Assembly: GCA_902614655.1 (NCBI GenBank)
Contig: CACMLX010000004.1
Location: 2,930-66,929 of the forward strand
Reading direction: 5' to 3'
Source of the DNA: an uncultured Pelagibacteraceae bacterium
Lineage (GTDB): Bacteria; Pseudomonadota; Alphaproteobacteria; Pelagibacterales; AG-422-B15
Length of the DNA stretch: 64,000 bases
Shown here in pieces: positions 12,332 through 27,282 of this stretch. Each line of letters begins with the position of its first letter. Within the stretch, counting starts at the first letter, position 1. The translations under genes and the position numbers were made by a program. The notes under the pieces were generated by a model, which worked only from the letters and a program-made list of their open reading frames with translations, ran no database searches and had not been told where the DNA came from.

Positions 12332-13072
12332 TTAGTAACTAAATGACAGTTCTCCTGAATTGAATTTTTTAAGCTCTCCATTCACTTTAATTTGAATCTC
12401 AAATGTATCAGTTATATCATCTAATATACCTTCAAATTCAATATTATTTTGAAAAAAACGAACCCGATCTCGCATTTTCCAGCAATTATTTTTATATAAC
12501 TCAATTAACTCTGAAATATCATCACTGTTAAGAATATTTAAGTAATTATTGATATTGGAGTCTAATGTTATAAGTATCTCTTTTGGCATAACTTCATTTT
12601 CGATTATAGATTTTATAGAGTTAGTTTTATGATTATTTATATTTGGTGAATTTTTTAAATTAATACCAATTCCAATTATAGAAAAACTCGCATTTTCACC
12701 TAGTAAATTTTCTATTAATATTCCAGCTAATTTTGCGTCATTATATAGTATATCGTTAGGCCATTTAATTTTTAAGAGGGCATTATTGGGTAAAAGATTT
12801 TTAATTGCATCATATACCGACAAAGAAGTTATACATGAAATAAACGGTATCTTTCTGTGATCCAAATTAATTGGCAAGACATATGAGCCATAAAAATTAC
12901 CTTCCTCTGAAACCCATTTATTATTATTTCTGCCTTTACCTGAAGTTTGTCTATTAGCTATAATCCAAGTTGCTTTATTTATTTTGTCATTTTCAATTAA
13001 TCTTTTAGCTTCTACATTCGTGCTATCGATTACTTCATGAAAAATAACTTCTGATTGAATTTGATCTAACAT
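12332..13072 (-). CDS. birA: Biotin--acetyl-CoA-carboxylase ligase (no HTH domain)
   Basis: DSTN, QTSGKGR, KWPND, KLAGILIE, GIGIN. Confidence 0.93.
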   Translation of the reverse strand: MLDQIQSEVIFHEVIDSTNVEAKRLIENDKINKATWIIANRQTSGKGRNNNKWVSEEGNFYGSYVLPINLDHRKIPFISCITSLSVYDAIKNLLPNNALLKIKWPNDILYNDAKLAGILIENLLGENASFSIIGIGINLKNSPNINNHKTNSIKSIIENEVMPKEILITLDSNINNYLNILNSDDISELIELYKNNCWKMRDRVRFFQNNIEFEGILDDITDTFEIQIKVNGELKKFNSGELSFSY

Positions 13073-14481
13073 TAAATAATTGATTGAATGGCATATTCAG
13101 AAATATTTATTACTGGCGATGGATAAATAAAGAAAATAATAATTAGTATTGATGAAGGATAATAAAGCAGATTAAGTGATTTGATACTTGATCCATCAAA
13201 TTCTTCTCTAGGTTCATCAAAATACATTATCTTAACAATCCTTAAATAATAAAATGCACTGATAACACTTGCCATGACGCCAATGATTGCGAGAAACAAC
13301 ATTTCAGATTCAATAGCTGCAACGAAAATATAAAATTTACCAAAAAAGCCAGCTAGAGGCGGGATGCCAGCTAGAGAAAACATAATCAAGGCAATCAGCA
13401 TGGTCCTTAAAGGATGATTTTTATGCATTCCAGATAAATCTGAAATATTTTCAAAATATCCATCGTTTCTTTTTAAAGACAGTAAAAAAGCAAAAACAGC
13501 AATGTTCATAATTAAATAAATCATTAAATATATTAATAATGACCTTAACCCCTCATCGGTAAAAGAGGCCACACCTATTAAAGAATATCCAATATGACCT
13601 ATTGAACTATACGCCATTAGTCTTTTTAAATTGGTTTGAGCAATGGCAGCAAAGGCAGCGAGCATCATCGATGCGATTGATATGAAAAAAATAATTTGTT
13701 GCCAGTCAATATAAATCTCACTAAATGAATTGAATAAGAATCTAACAAGTAAACCCATTGCAGCAATTTTTGGAGCAAGCGCAAAGAATCCTGTAATCGG
13801 AGTAGGTGCTCCTTGATAAACGTCAGGCGTCCACATATGGAAAGGAACTGCTGACACTTTAAAAGCTAGTCCTGCCAATACAAAAACTATACCAATAATT
13901 AAACCCAGACTTTCAGGGTTAATATTCACAGCGATTAGATTAAAGTTTGTATTTCCTGAAAATCCATAAATATATGAGATTCCAAAGAGTAATAAACCTG
14001 AGGAAAGAGCTCCGAGGATAAAATATTTAATTCCTGCTTCTGATGACAATAAGCTGTTTCTGTTCAAAGCCGCAAGAACATAAAGGCTTAATGATTGAAG
14101 CTCTAATCCTATAAACATTGCAAGCAAATCATTTGCTGAAACCATCACCATCATACCTATGGTTGAGAAAATTATTAAAATTGGAAATTCATAAATATTT
14201 ATATTTAGATCGTCTTTACTTGATACAAACATAATCAATGAAGCAATGGAGCCGATCAGTATCATAACTTTTAGTACTAGTGAAAATTCATCTACGACAA
14301 AACTATTTAGAAAGGCTGATTGAAAGGGTTGATTTAAAATTAAGATAACTGTGACTAAGAGAGAAAATATAGCAATCAAGTTAATAAGCTTTATATTTTT
14401 CAAAAACAAGCCAGTCACTAACAAAACTGTTGCAACTATAAATAAAAATATTTCAGGTAATATGTATACTAAACTTTGCAT
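13072..14481 (-). CDS. nuoN: NADH-quinone oxidoreductase subunit N
   Basis: FKVSAVPFHMWTPDVYQGAP, KRLMAYSSI. Confidence 0.97.
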   Translation of the reverse strand: MQSLVYILPEIFLFIVATVLLVTGLFLKNIKLINLIAIFSLLVTVILILNQPFQSAFLNSFVVDEFSLVLKVMILIGSIASLIMFVSSKDDLNINIYEFPILIIFSTIGMMVMVSANDLLAMFIGLELQSLSLYVLAALNRNSLLSSEAGIKYFILGALSSGLLLFGISYIYGFSGNTNFNLIAVNINPESLGLIIGIVFVLAGLAFKVSAVPFHMWTPDVYQGAPTPITGFFALAPKIAAMGLLVRFLFNSFSEIYIDWQQIIFFISIASMMLAAFAAIAQTNLKRLMAYSSIGHIGYSLIGVASFTDEGLRSLLIYLMIYLIMNIAVFAFLLSLKRNDGYFENISDLSGMHKNHPLRTMLIALIMFSLAGIPPLAGFFGKFYIFVAAIESEMLFLAIIGVMASVISAFYYLRIVKIMYFDEPREEFDGSSIKSLNLLYYPSSILIIIFFIYPSPVINISEYAIQSII

Positions 14482-14482
14482 T

Positions 14483-15964
14483 TTAATCTAATTTCATTTT
14501 AATTTGATTTACAATTTTTTCTGTTGAAGGCTCAATTATATTTATGATTGGTTTTGGATATAAGCCTATGAATATTGTTAGGATAATTAAGGGAAGAAAA
14601 ATAATTATCTCTCTTCTTGTTAAGTCAAACATTTCAGATAGATCATCTTTAATTAAAGCGCCAAATATTATTCTTCTATAAAGCCATAACGAATATGTGG
14701 CTGCCAACACAACACCTGTAGTCGCAAATATCGCAAAATATGTATTTACCGTAAATATAGAAAGGAGTACTAAAAACTCACCAACAAAACCACTTGTTCC
14801 AGGCAAGCCAAGACTGGCTAATATAAAAATCATAAATGAAAATGAATAAAAAGGCATTTTACTAACTAAGCCTCCATATCTTGCGATTTCTCTTGTATGG
14901 AGACGATCATATACTACGCCAACACACAAAAATAATGCCGCAGAAACAATGCCATGACTTATCATTTGAATTATGCCGCCTTCTATTCCTTGTACAGTAA
15001 ATGTAAATATTCCTAATGTTACAAATCCCATGTGGGCAACTGATGAATAAGCAATTAGTTTCTTCATATCTTCTTGCACTAATGCAATTAGAGAAGTCAC
15101 TATTATTGCTATGACACTAAGAGAAAATATAAATGGCGCAAAAAATTCTGATGCATCCGGAAAAAAACCAATAGAAAATCTTATAAAGCCATACCCAGCC
15201 ATTTTTAATAGAACGCCCGCAAGTATAACTGATCCAGCTGTCGGTGCTTCTACGTGGGCATCTGGTAGCCAAGTGTGAAAAGGCCACATTGGTATCTTGA
15301 CCATGAATGAAGTAAAAAATGCGATCCACAATATTAACTGTTCGTTTGTAGTAAAATTATACAACAAGAGTGTTTCAACATCAGTTGTGCCTGTAGAAAT
15401 GAAAATATAAATTATTGCAAGTAGCATAAATACTGAGCCAGCAAGTGTATAAAGAAAAAATTTGAAAGTTGAATAAACCCTTCTTTCTCCACCCCATATC
15501 CCAATGATTAAGAACATTGGAATTAAACCTCCTTCAAAAAATAGATAAAATAGGACAAGATCAAGAGAGCAGAAAACCCCAATCATAAAGGTTTCTAAAG
15601 CTAAAAATGAAATTAAATATTCTTTTACAGAAAATTTAATGCTTTCATAGCTTGCAAGTATGCAAATAGGTACGAGCATTGTTGTCAGTATTACAAATAA
15701 AATTGAAACTCCATCTATACCTAAATGATAACTGATACCACTTTCTATCCATGCGTATTTTTCTACAAATTGAAAATCTGGATTATTTAAGTCAAATGAA
15801 AATAGTAATGATAATGATATAATAAAATTTAAAAAAGTGATCCATAAGGCGGTGTGTTTTAAATTTTGCGAGCTTTGGTCATCATTATTTCTTATCAATA
15901 ACATAAAAAATATTCCAACGACCGGTATAAAGATTAAAATACTTAAGATTGGAATCTCACTCAT
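14483..15964 (-). CDS. nuoM: NADH-quinone oxidoreductase subunit M
   Basis: WPFHTWLPDAHVEAP, GLPGTSGFVGEF. Confidence 0.97.
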   Translation of the reverse strand: MSEIPILSILIFIPVVGIFFMLLIRNNDDQSSQNLKHTALWITFLNFIISLSLLFSFDLNNPDFQFVEKYAWIESGISYHLGIDGVSILFVILTTMLVPICILASYESIKFSVKEYLISFLALETFMIGVFCSLDLVLFYLFFEGGLIPMFLIIGIWGGERRVYSTFKFFLYTLAGSVFMLLAIIYIFISTGTTDVETLLLYNFTTNEQLILWIAFFTSFMVKIPMWPFHTWLPDAHVEAPTAGSVILAGVLLKMAGYGFIRFSIGFFPDASEFFAPFIFSLSVIAIIVTSLIALVQEDMKKLIAYSSVAHMGFVTLGIFTFTVQGIEGGIIQMISHGIVSAALFLCVGVVYDRLHTREIARYGGLVSKMPFYSFSFMIFILASLGLPGTSGFVGEFLVLLSIFTVNTYFAIFATTGVVLAATYSLWLYRRIIFGALIKDDLSEMFDLTRREIIIFLPLIILTIFIGLYPKPIINIIEPSTEKIVNQIKMKLD

Positions 15965-15967
15965 TTT

Positions 15968-17890
15968 TTAAAACCTGAAAATTATGAAAGTAATAATGAT
16001 TGAAAGACCAATTAAAATGGCAAAAGCATAATGGTAAATAAATCCAGATTGAACTTGCTTTGCTTTAATTGATATTCTGCTCACTAATGCAGCTATTCCG
16101 TTAGGTCCGTAACCATCAATAATTAAACCATCAATAAACTTCCAAAAAATCTGGCCAATTGCCATAGCTGGTTTTACAAAAATAGAATTATATAACTCGT
16201 CGAAATACCATTTATTTAATAGAAAGTTGTAAAGCGGTTTATTTAACTCGGCTATATTCTTAGCCATATTTGATTTTCGAATATACATGAACCAAGCGAT
16301 AATAAATCCAACTACACCTAAAATTGCAGGCAAATAATATATTAAGAGAGGAATTGAATGGTGATCTTCATGGTGGACGACAATTGAGCCATTCCAAAAT
16401 ACATCACTGTAGTAACCGATGAAATAACTTTTGAATAAAAATCCGAAAAACAACGCTCCAATTGCCAAAATTATTAGAGGAATTAACATTACTGAGGAAG
16501 ACTCATGAACTTTACTAAGATCTTCTTCAGCCATTCTTGTTTTTCCATTGAAAACAAGAAACATAAGCCTCCATGAATAGAAAGATGTCATCACAACACC
16601 GACTGTAAGTAAGATATACGCGTAGTCTGCGAAATTGGAATTAGACAAATAAGCTGTTTCTATGATTGCATCTTTTGAGTAATAGCCAGAAGTGAATGGA
16701 AAACCCATAAGTGAAATTGTTCCAATTATCATCATTAATTGAGTTATTGGAACAAAATTACTTATACCTCCCATTTTCCTTATATCCTGTTCTTCGTGAA
16801 CGGCATGAATAACTGATCCAGCTCCTAAAAATAGAAGTGCTTTAAAAAATGCATGTGTAAATAAATGGAACATAGCTGCACCGTAAGCTCCAAGTCCAGC
16901 TGCAACGAACATGTAGCCTAATTGACTGCAAGTTGAATATGCAATAACACGCTTAATATCATTTTGAACCAGCCCAACGGTAGCTGCAAAGAATGCAGTA
17001 CTTGCACCAATCAAAACTACAAAGTCCAGAGCAACAGGAGCCAAATCAAATAAAGGTGAACATCGTACAACAAGAAATACTCCAGCTGTAACCATTGTTG
17101 CCGCATGTATCAATGCAGATACTGGTGTTGGGCCTTCCATTGCATCAGGAAGCCATGTATGAAGAAATAATTGAGCTGACTTGCCCATTGCGCCAATAAA
17201 TAAGAAAATACAAATTAAAGTCAATGCATGTAGTTCAATACCTAAAAAATTAAAATTTACGTTCTTAAAAGATGAGGCATTACTAAATACTGTCTGGTAT
17301 TCGATGCTGCCAAAAACAATAAATATTGTAAAAATACCTAAAGCTAATCCAAAATCACCTATGCGATTTACTATAAATGCTTTAATTGCAGCGGCATTTG
17401 CAGTTGGTTTTTTATACCAAAACCCAATTAATAAATAAGAGGCAAGTCCAACACCCTCCCAGCCAAAGAAAAGTTGCAAAAAATTATCTGCTGTAACAAG
17501 CATCAACATAGCAAATGTGAATAATGATAAGTATCCCATAAAACGAGGCTTACTATCATCATGAGACATATAACCAATTGAATAAATATGAACTAACGCT
17601 GATACGCTTGTAATTACTACAAGCATTACTCTTGTGGCTGTATCTAGATAAATTGACCAATCGGCATTGAATGAACCAGAGGATATCCAGTTAAATAGTT
17701 TGATTGATACTACCGATGGGTCCCCAATATTATCAATAAAAATATAAAACGAAAATATTGCTGTAATAGTAATAAATAATGAAGTTATAATCTCTGCTGC
17801 TCGGTCAATAAATTTATTAGATTTAAAAAATGATAACGAACAAGAAATCAAGAACCCGATCAGGGGTAATAAAATTATACTATGCGCCAT
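15968..17890 (-). CDS. nuoL: NADH-quinone oxidoreductase subunit L
   Basis: GKSAQLFLHTWLPDAMEGPTPVSALIHAATMV, HAFFKALLF. Confidence 0.97.
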   Translation of the reverse strand: MAHSIILLPLIGFLISCSLSFFKSNKFIDRAAEIITSLFITITAIFSFYIFIDNIGDPSVVSIKLFNWISSGSFNADWSIYLDTATRVMLVVITSVSALVHIYSIGYMSHDDSKPRFMGYLSLFTFAMLMLVTADNFLQLFFGWEGVGLASYLLIGFWYKKPTANAAAIKAFIVNRIGDFGLALGIFTIFIVFGSIEYQTVFSNASSFKNVNFNFLGIELHALTLICIFLFIGAMGKSAQLFLHTWLPDAMEGPTPVSALIHAATMVTAGVFLVVRCSPLFDLAPVALDFVVLIGASTAFFAATVGLVQNDIKRVIAYSTCSQLGYMFVAAGLGAYGAAMFHLFTHAFFKALLFLGAGSVIHAVHEEQDIRKMGGISNFVPITQLMMIIGTISLMGFPFTSGYYSKDAIIETAYLSNSNFADYAYILLTVGVVMTSFYSWRLMFLVFNGKTRMAEEDLSKVHESSSVMLIPLIILAIGALFFGFLFKSYFIGYYSDVFWNGSIVVHHEDHHSIPLLIYYLPAILGVVGFIIAWFMYIRKSNMAKNIAELNKPLYNFLLNKWYFDELYNSIFVKPAMAIGQIFWKFIDGLIIDGYGPNGIAALVSRISIKAKQVQSGFIYHYAFAILIGLSIIITFIIFRF

Positions 17891-17896
17891 TCAACA

Positions 17897-18202
17897 TTAC
17901 CCCTTTAAGGCGTTAATTTTCTCAATCTCTATATTGCCAGCATTTCTGTTATAAATTACAAGTATAGCAAGTCCGATTGCAGCTTCAGCGGCAGCAACAG
18001 TAAGTACAAAAAGAGAGAATATTTGACCAGTTAGATCATTTAAAAAATATGAAAAAGCAATAAGATTTAAATTAACAGAGAGCAAAATGATTTCAATTGA
18101 CATTAAAATGATAATCACATTTTTTCGGTTTAAAAAAATACCAATAACGCCAATTGCAAACAATAAAGCAGATAAAATTAAAAATTGATTTAATTCAATC
18201 AT
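17897..18202 (-). CDS. nuoK: NADH-quinone oxidoreductase subunit K
   Basis: [19 protein letters not shown]. Confidence 0.97.
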
Positions 18203-18816
18203 TAAATATCAACACCTTTTCCTGATTTTACATCTACTAAATTAATTTTGCCCTGTCGTTGTAGTTGTTCTGAAACAACTTGCCTCTTTACGCCTTCTCT
18301 TTCGCGGAGAGTTAATACAATAGAACCAATCATTGCAACTAACAGAATTACACCTGAAAGTTGGAAATATAGAATGTAGTCTGTGTACAAAACTGAGCCA
18401 ATTGCTTCTGTATTAGACTTGCCAGTAAAATCTGAAAGAGGATTTGGTAACACTTGAATATTAGACAAGTCAAACTTTGTATTGATTAATACAATTATTA
18501 ACTCTGCAATAAAAACTACACCAATCAAAATTCCTATCGGAATATATTGTAAAATATTATCCTTATTGATTGATGTTTTAAAATCTAACATCATTACAAC
18601 AAATAAAAAAAGTACTGCAACAGCACCAACATAAACAATTATGAGTATCATTGCCAAAAATTCGGCGTGAAGAATAACGAATAAGCCGGCGGCATTCAAA
18701 AATGAAAGAATTAGGAACAATACTGAATGGACTGGGTTTTTAGTTGAAATAACCATCAATGAAGAAATTAAAATAACCCCTGAAAATAAATAGAATGTTA
18801 ATAATTGAGCTGTCAT
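18202..18816 (-). CDS. nuoJ: NADH-quinone oxidoreductase subunit J
   Basis: [26 protein letters not shown]. Confidence 0.97.
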
Positions 18817-19302
18817 TTATCTATATTTTGCATCGGCTTCTAAGTTCTCAGCGATAACTGTTTCCCACCTATCACCGTTTTCAAGCAATTTTTCTTTCGT
18901 GTAATAAAGTTCTTTTCTCGTTTCAGTTGTAAATTCAAAATTTGGACCTTGTACAATTGCATCAACTGGACACGACTCTTCACATAAACCGCAGTAAATG
19001 CATTTAACCATGTCAATATCATACCTTAGTGTTCTTCTTGTTCCATCATCGCGGGGTTGAGTTTCAATTGTTATCGCTTGAGCTGGACATACAGCCTCAC
19101 ACAATTTACATCCTATACACCTTTCCTCACCACTCGGATATCTCCTCAAAGCATGCTCTCCTCTGAATCGAGGGCTTAATTTACCTTTTTCAAAAGGATA
19201 ATTGATTGTTGCTTTTTTTCTAAAAAAATATTTTTGAGCTAAATAGAAAGCTTTTAAAAAATCTAGAAGAAGAAACGATTTTAAAAAATTAATTATTTTC
19301 AT
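18817..19302 (-). CDS. nuoI: NADH-quinone oxidoreductase subunit I
   Basis: Two CxxCxxCxxxCP motifs; [11 protein letters not shown]. Confidence 0.97.
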
Positions 19303-20315
19303 TACATTCCTGGAGCTAGATTAAAAAAGAACAATATCGAAGATGTTGCTACAACTGCAAACAGTGATAAGGGCAAGAAAACTTTCCAGCCAAGTCGCAT
19401 TAGTTGGTCATATCGATATCTTGGAACAAATGCTTTAACCATAGCAAATAAGTAAAAAACAAAAATTACTTTCAATAAAAACCAAACAAATCCAGGAACA
19501 GCATTGAGTGGATAAATATCAATTGGCGGCAACCACCCCCCAAGGAATAGGATAGTGGTCATTGCGCACATTAATAAAATATTTATGTATTCTCCAAACA
19601 GAAACAAAACGAATGGCATTCCTGAATACTCTGTTTGATATCCAGCTACTAACTCAGACTCTGCTTCAGGAAGATCAAATGGAGGTCTGTTCGTTTCAGC
19701 TAGTGCGGATATAAAAAAAACAATAAACATTGGAAATAAAGGTATGAAAAACCACATTGTCTTTTGAGCCATTACTATTTCAGTCAAGTTGAGTGAGCCT
19801 ACACATAGCAAGACAGTTATTATTACAAAACCTATGGAAACTTCGTAAGAAACCATTTGAGCAGCTGATCTTAGAGCGCCAAAAAAAGGATACTTACTGT
19901 TTGAAGACCATCCAGCCATCAGAATTCCATAGACACCAAGAGAGCTAATTGCAAAAATGTATAAGATTCCTACATTTATATTAGCCAATACTACGCCCGC
20001 CTGAACTGGTACAACTGCCCAGGCTGTAATTGATAGAGCAAGAGTAATAATAGGAGCAATTAGGAAAACTGTTTTGTCAGAGCCGTCGGGTAAAATAATT
20101 TCTTTAAAAATAAATTTTAATCCATCAGCAGGAACTTGGAACAAACCATACGGGCCAACCACATTTGGGCCTCTCCTTTTTTGAACTGCTGCCCATATTT
20201 TTCTATCTGCATATAACGCCATTACAACACCTAGAAGTAAGGGAACAAAAATAAGTAGGCAATAAAGAATAATGGTCATTACTTCGATAATGTACGTTTG
20301 AGCTAAGCTAATCAT
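19302..20315 (-). CDS. nuoH: NADH-quinone oxidoreductase subunit H
   Basis: [37 protein letters not shown]. Confidence 0.97.
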
Positions 20316-22825
20316 TATGAGGCCTTTTCCGTTACCGATGACCTTACTTCACTTCTAGCTCGGCTGCATTCGGCCATCGTACTAGAATGTCTTGTAATTG
20401 AGTCATTTATATAAAAGTCTTCAATACTGAAACTTAAGTTTTTAATTTTAAAGTTAATTTCTTTTGGTTGAGCATAGTATGCCTCTTGATTGTCGTTTAA
20501 AACGACAATTCCATCAGGTGAAAAATTTGCGTCATCTGCTAATCCAATTAAATTATTTTTATTTCTTTTAGTATAAGCCCATTTCTTTTGATTATAAGTA
20601 AGATCATTCCAAGCTTTTCCTATACTATTTGCGTATTGATCCTCATAGGGCAACACGACGTTATTCTTCTTCTTAATATCATTAACAACTTTAAAGCCAT
20701 AATGCTCTGTAAACTCTGACCATGTCTCAGGATAATTATATTTTCTCAGATACTCTCTCTGGCGATCATTTAGATCAGCCCAAGCTGTATTAAATATTTT
20801 TTTTGCAGAATTTTCCTCAAAGCTCTTGATGTTACCATTAATTGTATCATTCTTTTTTTCTTGGCTTGATCTTGTATCCTTATTAATGATTTCTACTTCT
20901 TCATTAGCTTTATTATCAATAATTTTAACGAGTCCATTATTTTGATCATTAAAGTCTTCTTTAAGATGGGGAAACTTGGCAAACATCTCATTTCTTACAT
21001 CATACAATTCTAAAAACGACCACTTTAGTTCAAGGACTTCACTGAATTGATTAATAATTTTCCAATCTTCCCTAGCTTCACCTGGAGGAAAACTTGCTTT
21101 ATTTGCGTATTGAACTCTCCCTTCAGTGTTTATAAAAATTGCATCTTTTTCAGTATATGCTGCTGCAGGCAATATAAAATCAGCGGCGTTTGCGCCTCTA
21201 TCTCCATGTGTGCCCATATAAACTATTTTACAATTAGAAAAATTTTCATAACTGATTTCATCAGCGCCAAATGAAAACACTAATTTGAATTTACCTTTTT
21301 CTGCATCGGCAACCAAATCATCGACTGATTTATTTTTTTGTATAAGACCCATCTCAAGAATACCTGCTCTTGCAGCGGCAAGCTGTAATACATTAAATCC
21401 ATTCCAATCTTCCTGAATGAGATTGAATTTATCTGTAAATGTTTCAAGTAGAGAGTAAATCTGCAATGAGTCATCACGGTTTAACACGGACTGGCCAATA
21501 ATAATCATTGGCTTTGAGGCATTTATTAACTTTTTATAAAATGAGTTTTTTTCATTTAAAAGATCTATAAGGATATTTATATCATCGCCCAAGTGATTGT
21601 ATTTATATGTAAGATCCACATTTTTCCCAATCAGTGCAACTGGAATATTTGATGAAATAACTCTTTTCCTTATTCTTGAATTAATAATTGCAGCTTCTTC
21701 GCGCGTGTTCGTTCCAATCATTAAAATGCAATCTGTTTCATCAATGCCTTTAATTTTAGAATTAAATAAGAACTGAGATCTATGGTTGAATGGAACTTTA
21801 CATCCTTCCTGTCTTCCATCAACTGCCTTGATACTTAGATCTTCCGATAATTTTTTTATTAAGTAGCTTGTTTCTAAATCAATAAAATCACCTACTAAAA
21901 ACGCAATTTCATCAGGATCTGAGTCCATAACAAGTTTTTTTAATTGAGAAAAAGTTTCTCCCCATGAAACTTGCTCTAATTTGTTATTCTTTTTTATGTA
22001 GGGTGTGTCTAGACGTTGATTTAAAAGCCCATCGCATGCATACCTTGTTTTATCTGATATCCACTCTTCATTAATATCTTCATTAAGCACGGGTAATACT
22101 CTTTTTACTTTCCACCCGTAAGTATCAACTCTAATATTCGACCCTACCGCATCCATAACATCAATCGTTTCTGTCTTCTTTAATTCCCAAGGTCTGGCTT
22201 CAAATTGATATGGTTTCGATGTAAGTGCACCTACCGGACATAAATCAACGATATTAGCCGATAGCTCGGAGTCTAATGTCTTTTCTAAATAAGTTGTTAT
22301 TTCCATATTTTCGCCGCGATTTACTGCTCCTAATTGATTTACTCCCGCTACTTCATCTGCAAATCGGATACACCTTGTGCAGTGAATGCATCGAGTCATA
22401 TAAGTTTTAATCAATGGGCCCATATGCTTTTCTTCAACTGCCCTTTTATTCTCTTCGAACCTTGAATTTTCAGGACCAAAAGCAATAGTTTGATCTTGTA
22501 GATCGCACTCACCGCCTTGATCACAAACTGGGCAATCTAGTGGGTGATTAATTAGCAAAAATTCCATTACACCTTCTCTCGCTTTTTTTACAGACTGAGT
22601 ATTTGTATGAATTGACATGCCTTCGTTAATTGGCATCGCGCACGATGCTACTGGTTTAGGTGAACCTTCCACATCAACAAGGCACATTCTACAATTACCT
22701 GCGATTGAAAGACGATCATGGTAGCAAAATCTTGGTATTTCAATTCCTGCCTCTTCACATGCCTGCAGTATCGTCATGCCATCAGATACTTCAATCTCGG
22801 ACCCATTTATTTTTACTTTTGCCAT
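20315..22825 (-). CDS. nuoG: NADH-quinone oxidoreductase subunit G with ~150-aa C-terminal-region insertion
   Basis: [39 protein letters not shown] and C-terminal DFYxxxxITRxSxTMAEC; 836 aa. Confidence 0.96.
20489..20509. repeat. Perfect inverted repeat (10-bp arms, 1-nt centre) inside the nuoG insertion
   Basis: ATTGTCGTTT-A-AAACGACAAT read directly. Confidence 0.9.
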
Positions 22826-24093
22826 TATGCAGCCTTAGTCTTTTTAAGTTGCTCTTCTATTTCATCTCTAAAATGCCTAAACAAACCTTGAATTGGCCAT
22901 GCCGCAGCATCACCAAGCGCGCAAATTGTATGGCCTTCGATTTGCTTTGTTACATCAAGTAACTTATCAATATCATTTGAACTTGCACGACCGTTTCCAA
23001 TCTTCTCCATCATTCTCCACATCCACCCTGTTCCTTCTCTACAAGGCGTGCATTGACCGCAACTTTCGTGTTTATAAAAGTGAGATAGCTTAGAGATAGC
23101 TTTAACGAGGTCAGTGCTTTTATCCATTACGATTACAGCGGCTGTGCCTAACCCACTTTTGACTGCAGACAGTGAATCGAAATCCATCAGGACAGTATCG
23201 CAAGTTGATTTTGGTATAAGTGGAACAGATGAGCCTCCAGGAATTACAGCTTTAAGATTATCCCATCCACCAGTTACTCCTCCAGCATGCTTTTCTACAA
23301 GCTCCCTAAGAGGAATGCTCATTTCTTCCTCTATATTGCAAGGATTGTTAACATGACCAGAAATACAAAAAACTTTTGTCCCTGTATTTTTTGGTCGACC
23401 AAAAGATGAAAACCATTCTCCACCTCTTCTTAAAATCGTTGGAACAACAGCTATGGTTTCAACATTATTTACAGTAGTTGGCGATCCGTATAGACCTTTA
23501 TTAGCGGGAAAAGGAGGTTTGAGTCTTGGTTGGCCCTTTTTTCCCTCCAAGCTTTCAAGTAGAGCTGTCTCCTCACCACATATGTATGCTCCTGCGCCTC
23601 GATGTAAAAATATATCGAAATCCCAACCCGACTTAGCAGCATTTTTCCCAATTAACCCAGCGTCGTATGCTTCGTCAATCGCTTTTTGAAGAACAACAGC
23701 TTCATTAAAATATTCACCGCGAATATAAATGTAACAAGTATGAGCATTCATAGCAAAAGATGCTAACAAACATCCTTCAATAAGCTTATGAGGCTCATTT
23801 CGTATCATATCTCTATCTTTACAGGTACCTGGTTCAGACTCATCTGCATTAACAACAAGGTAATTAGTAAGCTTTGAATCTTTAGGCATAAATGACCATT
23901 TTAATCCGGTAGGGAAACCTGCACCTCCTCTTCCCCTTAACTCAGATTTTTTCATCTCATCAATTATCCATTCTCTTCCTTTTTTAATAAGTTCTTTTGT
24001 ATTATCCCAATCACCTCTTGCCTGTGCATTTTTTAAATGAAAAGGCTCATCGCCAAATAAATTAGTAAATATTTTATCTTTTTCTTTTAACAT
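22825..24093 (-). CDS. nuoF: NADH-quinone oxidoreductase subunit F
   Basis: [35 protein letters not shown]. Confidence 0.98.
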
Positions 24094-24650
24094 TAAGACA
24101 CTGCCTTTGAACTTTTACGGCCACTTTGTGAACCTATACTCAGTGGCGAGCCATCTATAAGAGATTGCAAAACGTTTTTTGTTGTATCGTAAGTCAAATC
24201 TTCATAATAATCGTCATTGATTTGAACAAGTGGAGCATTCACACAAGCACCAAGACACTCAACTTGCATCCATGAAAATAAACCATCGCTTGAGACTGTA
24301 TTTGGTTCTGGTGAAATAACTTCTTTGCACGCTTTTATAACTTGATCTGAACCCCTTAACCAACAAGGTGTTGTTCCACAAACTTGTACTAAATATTTTC
24401 CGTTATATTTTGTGTAATACATTGAATAAAAAGTAACTACTTCCCAAGCCTTAATAAAAGGCATTTCTAAGTAATCCGCTACATACTCAACTATATCCCT
24501 GCTCAACCAGTTTTCATTTTGTCTTTGCGCTAAATCAAGCAAAGGCATGATTGCACTTTGCCTTCTATCAGTTGGATATTTAAGAAGAATTTCTTTTGCC
24601 TTAATTTCATTTTCCTTATTAAACACAAAGGCGTTTTTTTGATTGCTCAT
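24093..24650 (-). CDS. nuoE: NADH-quinone oxidoreductase subunit E
   Basis: CGTTPC and ECLGAC 2Fe-2S ligands. Confidence 0.97.
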
Positions 24651-25819
24651 CTATCAACCTCACCGAAAACTATTGCAATTGATCCAAGAATTGCAGGGAC
24701 ATCTGCTAGAAGATGGCCTTTTGAGAGCAAATCAAATGCCTGCAAGTGAGCAAATCCAGGGGCTCTAATTTTACACCTATAAGGTCTGCTGGTTCCATCA
24801 GAAATTAAATATACCCCAAATTCACCTTTAGGAGCCTCAACGGCAGAATAGATTTCTCCTTCAGGTACATGAAAGCCTTCAGTAAAAAATTTAAAATGGT
24901 GGATTATGGCTTCCATTGATTGTTTCATATCTTCCCTTTTGGGTGCTGCAATTTTGGAATCTCTATTGATCACTTCTCCTTTAGGCATCTGATCAAGACA
25001 TTGAAGCATGATTTTCGTACTTTCTCTCATTTCTTCAATCTGACATAGATAACGGTCATAACAATCACCGTTTTGACCAACTGGAACTTTGAATTCAAGT
25101 TTGTCGTAACAATCATACGGTTGGGACTTTCTTAAATCCCATGGTACACCGCATGCTCTTAATATGAATCCGCTAAAACCACGATCAACAGCATCTTCCT
25201 TTGATACTTTGCCAATATTTACATTTCGTTGTTTAAATATTCTATTTTCAGTCAACATGCTTTCAATATCATCAATTGCTTTTGGGAAATTATTACAAAA
25301 ATTAAATATCTTATCAGTTAACCCGTCTGGAAGATCTTGATGAACACCACCTGCTCGAAAATAGGCTGCATGAAATCTCGATCCAGATACTTCCTCGTAA
25401 AAATCTAATAGCTTTTCTCTTTCATCAAAACCCCATGTGATTGGTGTCATAGCTCCCACATCCATCGCTGTTGTGGTAACATTTAGAAGGTGGCTTAAGA
25501 GACGTCCAATTTCGGCAAATAGAACCCTAATATATTGTCCTCTCAAAGGCACTTCTACATTTAGCAATTTTTCTATTGCTAATGCAAAAGCATGCTCCTG
25601 GTTCATGGGTGCAACATAATCCAATCTGTCAAAATATGGTATTGCTTGAAGATAAGTTTTATGTTCGATAAGTTTTTCAGTGCCCCTATGTAAAAGCCCG
25701 ATGTGCGGGTCAGCCCTTTCTACAATTTCTCCATCTAGATCAAGAATGAGTCTCAAAACGCCATGTGCTGCGGGGTGTACTGGTCCAAAATTAACAGTTA
25801 CAGTTTTATTATTACTCAC
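24647..25819 (-). CDS. nuoD: NADH-quinone oxidoreductase subunit D
   Basis: [33 protein letters not shown]. Confidence 0.97.
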
Positions 25820-26405
25820 TTTCTTTTGCTTCCTTATCTAAATACTTTGTTCCTTCCCAGGGACTTTGAATGTCAAAATTTCTAAAATCTTGCTGTAGCT
25901 TAACAGGCTCGTGAACTATTTTTTTATCAATTTCGTCATATCTGATTTCGACATTACCTGTTAATGGAAAGTCTTTACGTAGAGGATATCCCTCAAAACC
26001 GTAATCAGTTAAAATTCTTCTTAAATCAGGATGATCCGTGAAAGTTATTCCATACATGTCAAATGCTTCTCTCTCAAACCAATTAGCTGCAGGAAAGATT
26101 GATGTTATGCTGGGCAAGGACTCCACTTCACTTATCTGGGTTTTTACTCTTAACCGTAAATTAAACCTAAAACTCAAAAAATGATAAATAACTTTAAATC
26201 TTTTTTCATTTTCTGGAAAATCCACTCCAGCAATATCTGTAATTTGCTTAAATTCACAGCTTGGATCATTCTTAACAAAATCAATAACCAGTATTAAATT
26301 CGCTGGATCAACCGATAGCTGTAACTGTCCTAAATTTACATCTATATCATTCAATTTACAGTTTTTTTCAATGGCAGCTTTTGCCATTTCAATTTGCTCG
26401 CTCAT
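25812..26405 (-). CDS. nuoC: NADH-quinone oxidoreductase subunit C (start moved to ATG 26405)
   Basis: [27 protein letters not shown]; ATG overlaps the nuoB stop (TAATG). Confidence 0.95.
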
Positions 26406-26926
26406 TATCTTTTGATGTTGCCTTCTCTTCTTATTTTTTTCTGTAACTGTAATAATCCATAAAGCAAGCCTTCTGCTGTAGGCGGACACCCTGGCACGTA
26501 AACATCGACAGGTATTATTCGATCACAACCTCTAACAACAGAATATGAGTAGTGATAATACCCTCCACCATTCGCACAACTTCCCATGGAAATAACATAT
26601 CGAGGTTCTGGCATCTGATCGTAAGCTTTTCTTAATGCCGCTGCCATTTTATTTGTCAACGTACCTGCCACTATAAGAACGTCTGCATGTCTTGGTGATG
26701 CTCTTGGAGCTGCGCCAAAACGCTCAACATCGTAGCGCGGTGTTCCTACATGCATCATTTCGACAGCACAACAAGCTAATCCAAATGTCATCCAATGCAG
26801 AGAGCCTGTTCGAGCCCAGTTAATAAGGTTATTGATACTGGTGACAACAAACCCCTTATCAGCATACAACTTCTTTAGTCTTTCTAGTTCCGGACTTGTC
26901 TCTTCAATGTTTGTATTTATTGCCAC
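26405..26926 (-). CDS. nuoB: NADH-quinone oxidoreductase subunit B (probable GTG start at 26926)
   Basis: [23 protein letters not shown]; AGGAG upstream of the GTG, which overlaps the end of nuoA. Confidence 0.93.
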
Positions 26927-27282
26927 TCCAATGCTCCTTTTTTCCACTCGTATATGAAACCAATTGTTAGTATAGCTAGGAAAACCATCATTGAAACAAA
27001 GCCAAATACGCCCAAAGTTCCAAATGTAACAGCCCAAGGAAATAGAAACGCGACTTCTAGGTCAAAAATAATAAAAAGTAATGTGACTAAATAGAAACGA
27101 ACATCAAACTTCATTCTAGAGTCTCCAAACTGCTCAAATCCGCACTCATAGGCAGAATTCTTTTCAGGATCAGGGTTGTTTACTGCAACTAAGAAATTTG
27201 CCAAAACAAATAGACAGCTAATCGCTAACGCGACAAACATAAAAATTAGTATTGGCAAATAATCAGCTATCGCTATGTCCAT
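26917..27282 (-). CDS. nuoA: NADH-quinone oxidoreductase subunit A
   Basis: [28 protein letters not shown]. Confidence 0.97.

Follow-up and report, generated by a model that had tools for sequence, protein, structure and literature searches.

A lineage-specific insertion without detectable relatives in the complex I subunit NuoG of SAR11 bacteria

SAR11 genomes are among the smallest of free-living bacteria, yet one SAR11 lineage keeps 441 extra bases in a core respiratory gene, and the question raised by this locus is what these bases encode and what the encoded segment might do. The gene is nuoG, which specifies NuoG, one of the subunits that make up respiratory complex I, and it lies in an uncultured Pelagibacteraceae bacterium (GenBank assembly GCA_902614655.1, contig CACMLX010000004.1, positions 2,930 to 66,929 of the forward strand); this whole stretch of 64,000 nucleotides is referred to as the window, and all coordinates below are positions in it. 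NuoG is usually about 675–725 amino acids (aa) long with a short linker before its C-terminal helix, whereas the protein encoded here has 836 aa and carries an insertion of 147 aa. A sequence-only reading of the window had attributed the surplus to a foreign domain inserted in frame near the C-terminus, perhaps serving as an accessory module of the complex's peripheral arm. The insertion proves to be real, tightly conserved and apparently unique to its lineage, and the likeliest of the explanations that we weigh, if still a tentative one, is that it forms a built-in accessory brace on the peripheral arm.

The extent of the insertion follows from comparison with relatives that lack it. In an alignment made with MAFFT, residues 641–787 stand as a single gap-free block against six insert-less SAR11 NuoGs, with homologous sequence on both sides (ending in NKA before the block and continuing with K-E-I-x-F after it), and the same block is gapped against 12 insert-less NuoGs in a larger alignment. 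The spacing between the conserved core and the C-terminal block is consequently stretched, being about 178 residues here as opposed to about 32–35 in the two PDB chains displayed as alignments from which the reference spacing was taken (660 to 695 in 7zm7_A and 648 to 680 in 9iho_G). The insertion is in frame; it comes after the molybdopterin-like domain and before the C-terminal helix, in a region (residues 626–800) where no Pfam family was found at E≤1. The interval originally assigned to the domain (20426..20950, residues 626–800) contains the insertion together with native linker, 15 residues on one side and 13 on the other. The segments of the gene that matter to the argument are as follows.

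20465..20905, minus strand: the lineage-specific insertion of 147 aa, NuoG residues 641–787, recognised as the gap block in alignments and without detectable homologue (orphan).
20786..20905, minus strand: more variable and highly charged N-terminal part of the insert, residues 641–680, delimited by identity and consensus bins.
20465..20785, minus strand: strongly conserved remainder of the insert, residues 681–787, delimited by identity and consensus bins and by helices predicted at low confidence with AlphaFold2 (AF2).
20906..20965, minus strand: native linker preceding the insert in the protein, residues 621–640, poorly conserved and, by alignment, also present in insert-less relatives.
20318..20464, minus strand: native C-terminal tail, residues 788–836, including the NADH_dhqG_C helix at residues 796–820 (20366–20440).

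The insert is hydrophilic and, as had been noticed, rich in tryptophan and tyrosine, which together make up 14 of its 147 residues versus 24 of 640 in the core. The 20 distinct sequences aligned all have inserts of the same length, 147 aa. The conserved part begins with aromatic-rich predicted helices and passes into a nearly invariant segment, running from N-L-I-G-L-A-D-D-A to Y-Y-A, for which AF2 predicts, at low confidence, a short beta hairpin.

An explanation that would dispose of the question, and to which we give almost no weight, is that the segment is a chimera created in assembly, or else something cut out of the transcript or the protein, such as an intein or an intron-like sequence. 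Independent assemblies carry it: in a search of 60 genomes of the family, 38 cover the whole C-terminal query with the insert (the source genome, 36 others of its genus and one of a second genus), and two more of its own genus contribute fragments at contig ends. The insert occurs in 38 named loci, whose titles all describe single-cell or metagenome assemblies of Pelagibacteraceae, and one 90%-identity cluster of insert-bearing NuoG holds 809 member sequences. The stretch is present in at least 20 sequencing runs from nine studies, six of them RNA libraries. Among the four runs inspected, a DNA contig is gapless across 20250–21150, contigs from RNA libraries bridge the upstream junction at 20905 (X15, 20555–21043; X17, 20866–21150) and the downstream junction at 20465 (X17, 20337–20536; X19, 20250–20560), and no joints or indels were seen in contigs across either junction. 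The bridging RNA-library contigs stem from three studies. This run evidence consists of contigs, and since RNA libraries can contain DNA, it speaks for continuity of the sequence and is not strict proof of transcription. As the sequence-only reading had also remarked, the segment lacks intein ends: It starts with N641, with no Cys, Ser or Thr in first position, and closes with A-Q-P787 followed by K788, with no His-Asn end, no Cys, and no Pfam match to a Hint or intein family. A removed element is further opposed by selection that acts at the amino-acid level (see below), and, as judged from comparison of the gene sequences, the insert is shown to be translated as part of NuoG.

The distribution of the insert within SAR11 is narrow. 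We distinguish the genus of the source genome (g1), the second insert-bearing genus (g7), two insert-less sister genera (g5 and g6) and another SAR11 family (f2). In the sister genera, five of six g5 genomes and four of five g6 genomes were matched, their NuoG frames are 688–694 aa long, and the alignment with the query is split in two, skipping the insert. Across the order (251 genomes of at least 70% completeness), coverage of the whole query occurs only in g1, with 30 genomes and one fragment out of 35. Matches were obtained in 158 of 206 f2 genomes, and among the matches listed, which include one unpublished genome (G115) and beyond which lie 48 more, full-length frames measure 673–711 aa and align only in the flanks. 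Outside SAR11, 124 of 150 alphaproteobacterial families were matched (again with one unpublished genome, G297), with stop-to-stop frames mostly of 674–725 aa; 19 frames reach at least 730 aa, and in the six longest of these, the ones taken for checking (13 frames of 735–777 aa fell outside this check), the surplus precedes the true start, with normal spacing from core to tail. The expected size of alphaproteobacterial NuoG is borne out by these figures, and the insert, far from being widespread in the class, is confined to two SAR11 genera among those examined, with none in solved or searched NuoG homologues elsewhere.

A maximum-likelihood tree of the NuoG core, built after removal of residues 621–795, gathers the 22 insert-bearing sequences beyond a single branch, supported at 98/99, leaving g5, g6 and f2 outside the insert-bearing clade and requiring one change. 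Because the root falls among insert-less outgroups and one change on the tree suffices, the change is a single gain: On this phylogenetic evidence, the insert is shown to have been gained once, in the common ancestor of the two genera, and to have been inherited vertically thereafter.

Where the inserted sequence came from is a separate matter. It had been proposed to be foreign. On such a view it would be a horizontally acquired domain or a fused supernumerary subunit, derived from a free-standing gene, native to the lineage or from outside it, that became fused into nuoG. The clean in-frame boundaries and domain-like size of the insert would suit such an origin, which we nevertheless judge very improbable. 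A profile built from the 20 sequences and run with HMMER against 1.84 billion representative proteins (E≤0.001) returned ten hits, one being the full-length representative of insert-bearing NuoG and the other nine parts of that gene, fragmentary or chimeric and 51–145 aa long, so that only NuoG and its own pieces were matched and no homologue of the insert outside this NuoG emerged from the 1.84 billion. Searches of viral contigs found none, and a second copy was sought in the source genome at the protein, DNA and profile levels with the same outcome. Base composition likewise matches that of the gene: The GC content of the insert is 0.317 and that of its third codon positions (GC3) is 0.259, against 0.353 and 0.263 for the rest of nuoG. 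The label of a foreign domain is therefore not supported, no donor having come to light in these collections.

Nor does the insert resemble a catalogued family. The best E-values in family libraries were 0.049 in PHROGs (tape measure), 0.02 in NCBIfam (S25e) and 1.1 in a PDB profile search, none amounting to a family, and Pfam applied to all 20 insert members gave no family in more than two of them. The insert alone had no usable hit in the ESM Atlas; when residues 676–790 were searched in the context of the whole protein, scores were at most 0.86, with NADH_dhqG_C at the top and NarG domain V next, hits that probably reflect context leaking from the rest of NuoG. A likeness of the W-x-D-L motif (described below) to the helix pair of the HMG-box was considered and dropped, no search having backed it. 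By these searches the insert is shown to be an orphan, without detectable homologue elsewhere.

The idea of a fused supernumerary subunit finds no support either, for Pfam matches no family to the insert and the accessory subunits that were tested persist as separate genes. The NDUFA12 homologue (PF05071) is separately encoded in 48 of the 60 family genomes and the NDUFS4 homologue (PF04800) in 46 of 60, including 35 of 46 in g1; the latter was not found in 11 of 46 g1 genomes, one of which is rated 100% complete, nor in either of the two g7 genomes. An NDUFS6-like zf-CHCC gene (PF10276) stands alone in four of the five genomes tested, including both insert-bearing ones. The related idea that the insert replaces a lost accessory subunit was rejected: Homologues of NDUFA12, NDUFS4 and zf-CHCC co-occur with the insert, and the absence of NDUFS4 shows no clean anticorrelation with it.

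If the insert were a functionless expansion of a surface linker, neutral and merely tolerated, its location would be unsurprising, the site lying within a poorly conserved linker (residues 621–640, with 30–60% identity in deep pairs), and the low confidence of its AF2 models would fit as well. Patterns of sequence change speak strongly against such a passenger, to which we assign only a slight chance. In the only pair of sequences with unsaturated synonymous sites, the ratio of nonsynonymous to synonymous substitution rates (dN/dS) comes to 0.062 in the insert, against 0.041 in the core. Deep pairs show saturation at synonymous sites (proportions of synonymous differences, pS, of 0.7–0.85), and in them dN/dS of the insert is about 0.05 where dS can be computed (0.049 in one case); despite this saturation, residues 681–787 are 83–89% identical in all seven deep pairs compared with 76–79% for the core (residues 1–620), while residues 641–680 are 57–78% identical. 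In terms of matches to the consensus, calculated in 20-residue bins over seven sequences spanning the main lineages, residues 681–780 score 0.84–0.99 and residues 641–680 score 0.76–0.81, to be set beside 0.93–1.00 in the iron-sulphur (Fe-S) domains and 0.60–0.92 in domains B and C. Constraint at dN/dS values of about 0.05–0.06, identity above that of the core, an unvarying length in 20 of 20 distinct sequences and retention in streamlined genomes of 1.1–1.3 Mb all tell against neutrality. These comparisons show purifying selection on the insert that is as strong as that on the Fe-S domains, and they bear out the view that the insert is no junk, being in frame, non-degenerate and conserved in relatives. 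They also fit the suggestion of a functional module on the peripheral arm. Conservation this tight in streamlined genomes implies that complex I has been adapted in a real way in this particular lineage, be it for stability, regulation or the recruitment of a partner.

In the model that we tentatively prefer, that of a built-in brace, the insert would fold into a module, mostly of alpha-helices, at the surface of the NADH-oxidising tip (the N-module) of the peripheral arm. It would pack on domains B and C of NuoG, and perhaps on neighbouring subunits, and would thereby brace NuoG. It would take no part in electron transfer, because it contains no cysteine and a single histidine. In chain order, it would fill the slot that domain D occupies in NuoG from outside the Alphaproteobacteria. 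That residues 681–787 hardly vary at all suggests that most of the surface of the module may be engaged in protein–protein contacts.

Additions of this kind have precedents. According to a review (PMC8762328), bacterial NuoG comprises domains A–D, of which mitochondrial NDUFS1 has lost domain D; NDUFA2, a eukaryotic accessory subunit, is proposed there to compensate for this loss by bridging domains B and C of NDUFS1, and the G-loop and the alpha10/alpha11 extension of E. coli NuoG are described as stabilisers acting in cis. Domain D, the G-loop and alpha10/alpha11 are thus, like the SAR11 insert, lineage-specific extra NuoG polypeptide with a proposed bracing role in place of accessory subunits (PMC8762328). 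The SAR11 insert follows domain C, where domain D would lie elsewhere, a placement inferred from the review. The insert has no sequence similarity to domain D (Molydop_binding and other Pfam families are absent at E≤10 in 20 of 20 members), low-confidence AF2 models predict helices for most of it and no beta-barrel, and by parsimony on the tree it was gained secondarily in a lineage whose ancestors lacked domain D. NDUFA2 would share the proposed role of bracing NDUFS1 for the missing domain (PMC8762328), but it is a separate protein of thioredoxin fold with redox-active cysteines, whereas the insert is joined covalently into NuoG, lacks cysteine and matches no family. Mycobacterial complex I bears lineage-specific subunit extensions and a response-regulator subunit, MSMEG_2064 (PMC10068793), which are likewise additions to the peripheral arm, structural or regulatory, that are restricted to one clade; these involve other subunits and recognisable families, whereas the SAR11 addition is an orphan inside NuoG. 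Lineage-specific additions to bacterial complex I are therefore a known theme, and what is new here is an orphan segment within NuoG. No published description of this insert was found in the full-text literature on SAR11 NuoG and alphaproteobacterial NuoG insertions, which was surveyed mostly by titles and the beginnings of abstracts.

Several observations weigh against the brace. First, structure prediction yielded no confident model: AF2 gave a mean predicted local distance difference test (pLDDT) of 51.8 and a predicted template modelling score (pTM) of 0.35 for the insert alone with the 20-sequence alignment, and a mean pLDDT of 57.4 for full-length NuoG with 34 sequences, where most of the insert stayed under 50 and modelling of the Fe-S domains was poor too, such that neither model is usable for the fold, its contacts or its packing on domains B and C. 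Helices common to both low-confidence runs span residues of about 654–663, 666–678, 687–696, 700–721, 726–734 and 744–757, and the run on the insert alone, also of low confidence, adds a short hairpin at 773–785. Comparisons of the poor insert model with known structures returned noise, with a best E of 2.3 by Foldseek against the PDB and a best Z of 3.4 by VIA-align against 48,161 chains. A complex prediction pairing NuoG residues 241–640 plus 788–836 with the insert scored 0.07 and 0.01 relative to a mark of 0.32, a result that came without controls and is neutral on packing. Second, the core bears no sequence footprint of a new interface: Among core positions otherwise fixed, only six substitutions are specific to the clade, and these are conservative, scattered and unclustered. 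Third, the sister genera and other SAR11 have the same set of accessory subunits and manage without the insert, so a need for stabilisation alone is not obvious. Finally, near-complete invariance would fit a hub for binding partners at least as well as it fits a brace.

That last point leads to a docking or regulatory platform, i.e., an exposed hub that would bring a specific partner to the tip of complex I at which NADH is oxidised, an alternative that we consider possible although somewhat doubtful. The partner might be a soluble dehydrogenase or a regulator, a factor for assembly or quality control, or a further respiratory complex; in another version of the idea, the insert might mediate oligomerisation. 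Nearly all of residues 681–787 are fixed, including many polar and charged residues expected on a surface, and the segment is more conserved than the adjoining domains B and C. Compensating changes are absent from the NuoG core and from the other 13 Nuo subunits, all of which are collinear and align end to end with their relatives by blastp, with no large indel outside NuoG (the operon was compared with two insert-less sister genera, one f2 genome and one divergent insert-bearing genome). A precedent for docking is the lineage-specific, signalling-type MSMEG_2064 bound to mycobacterial complex I (PMC10068793). The platform, in turn, has no known or predicted partner, no search for genes co-occurring with the insert having been made, and Pfam recognises no interaction domain in the insert. 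Because so small a domain is invariant while the core is unchanged, a docking or regulatory role stands close behind the brace.

Since the insert has no relatives, it may be a case of domain birth. As such, it would be a natural example of an accessory module arising inside a core subunit, which is the question also posed by the supernumerary subunits of complex I in mitochondria. The two halves of the insert (NuoG residues of about 666–692 and 723–749) have in common the pattern [IV]-x-x-[FY]-E-[ED]-x-x-A...W-x-D-L-x-x-x-Q. When the halves were aligned as single sequences, 57 of 500 shuffles reached the same score, and a profile–profile comparison with hhalign gave P = 0.011 and a probability of 3.9%, figures that are suggestive of an internal duplication but do not establish one. 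A bolder proposal, which we think improbable though worth stating, is that the domain was born within SAR11, possibly from a duplicated helix-loop-helix unit of about 45 residues containing W-x-D-L-x-x-x-Q, and that it came under constraint equal to that of the Fe-S domains by serving as a dedicated docking site, which would tether a specific partner to the NADH-oxidising tip of the complex. If this were true, the site would tether a dehydrogenase, a regulator or a respiratory complex in very abundant ocean bacteria.

Apart from its insert, NuoG is an ordinary member of its family. The gene and its surroundings comprise the following.

20315..22825, minus strand: nuoG coding sequence, 836 aa plus stop, identified from the open reading frame (ORF) list, TIGR01973, Pfam domains and PDB matches.
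13072..27282, minus strand: the nuoA–N operon around nuoG, complete with 14 genes according to the ORF list.
22825..24093: nuoF, the upstream neighbour of nuoG.
19302..20315: nuoH, the downstream neighbour of nuoG.

The protein scores 721.9 bits against the TIGR01973 equivalog (cut-off 470.05), and Pfam places Fer2_4 at residues 3–76, NADH-G_4Fe-4S_3 at 83–122, Fer4_Nqo3 at 136–202, Fer4_NDSU1 at 215–265, Molybdopterin (PF00384) at 271–597 with 282 bits, and NADH_dhqG_C (PF09326) at 796–820 with 31.9 bits (cut-off 25); the Fe-S domains (PF13510, PF10588, PF22117 and PF22151) all exceed their cut-offs. All 34 aligned NuoGs have the Fe-S ligands C34/C45/C48/C62, H94/C98/C101/C107 and C146/C149/C152/C196 without variation. 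In phmmer searches of the PDB, residues of about 2–623 match NDUFS1/NuoG chains with E-values of 1e-186 to 1e-203, and residues 797–825 match the C-terminal segment of such chains. Solved NuoG/Nqo3/NDUFS1 proteins (8qby_G of 674 aa, which we take to be the Paracoccus enzyme, 7zm7_A and 6g2j_G) have the same Fe-S domains, molybdopterin-like domain, C-terminal helix and operon position, and differ in that the SAR11 protein has 147 extra residues in the linker, of about 32–35 residues, that precedes the C-terminal helix. NuoG of this bacterium is hence a canonical 75-kDa subunit of the alphaproteobacterial and mitochondrial type, with a variant architecture and still a member of the family.

Two observations concern the accessory set of complex I in its own right. 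The zf-CHCC family PF10276 was present in all four tested genomes of the source organism's family and was not found in one complete f2 genome (G028), which may point to a family-level difference in accessory subunits, as seen from that single f2 genome. In the source genome, the NDUFS4-like gene (G000:C1:140169-140446) consists of two overlapping pieces in different frames, with the switch at a run of ten G; the frame change probably arose as a homopolymer error when the single-cell genome was assembled, or else the gene is possibly a pseudogene.

The start of nuoG overlaps nuoF, and its stop codon overlaps the start of nuoH in the sequence TAATG, read directly, so that the coupling of the two genes noted at the outset is present. 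Similar overlaps of stop and start codons occur at several junctions of the nuoA–N operon (13072–27282 of the window), which is compact.

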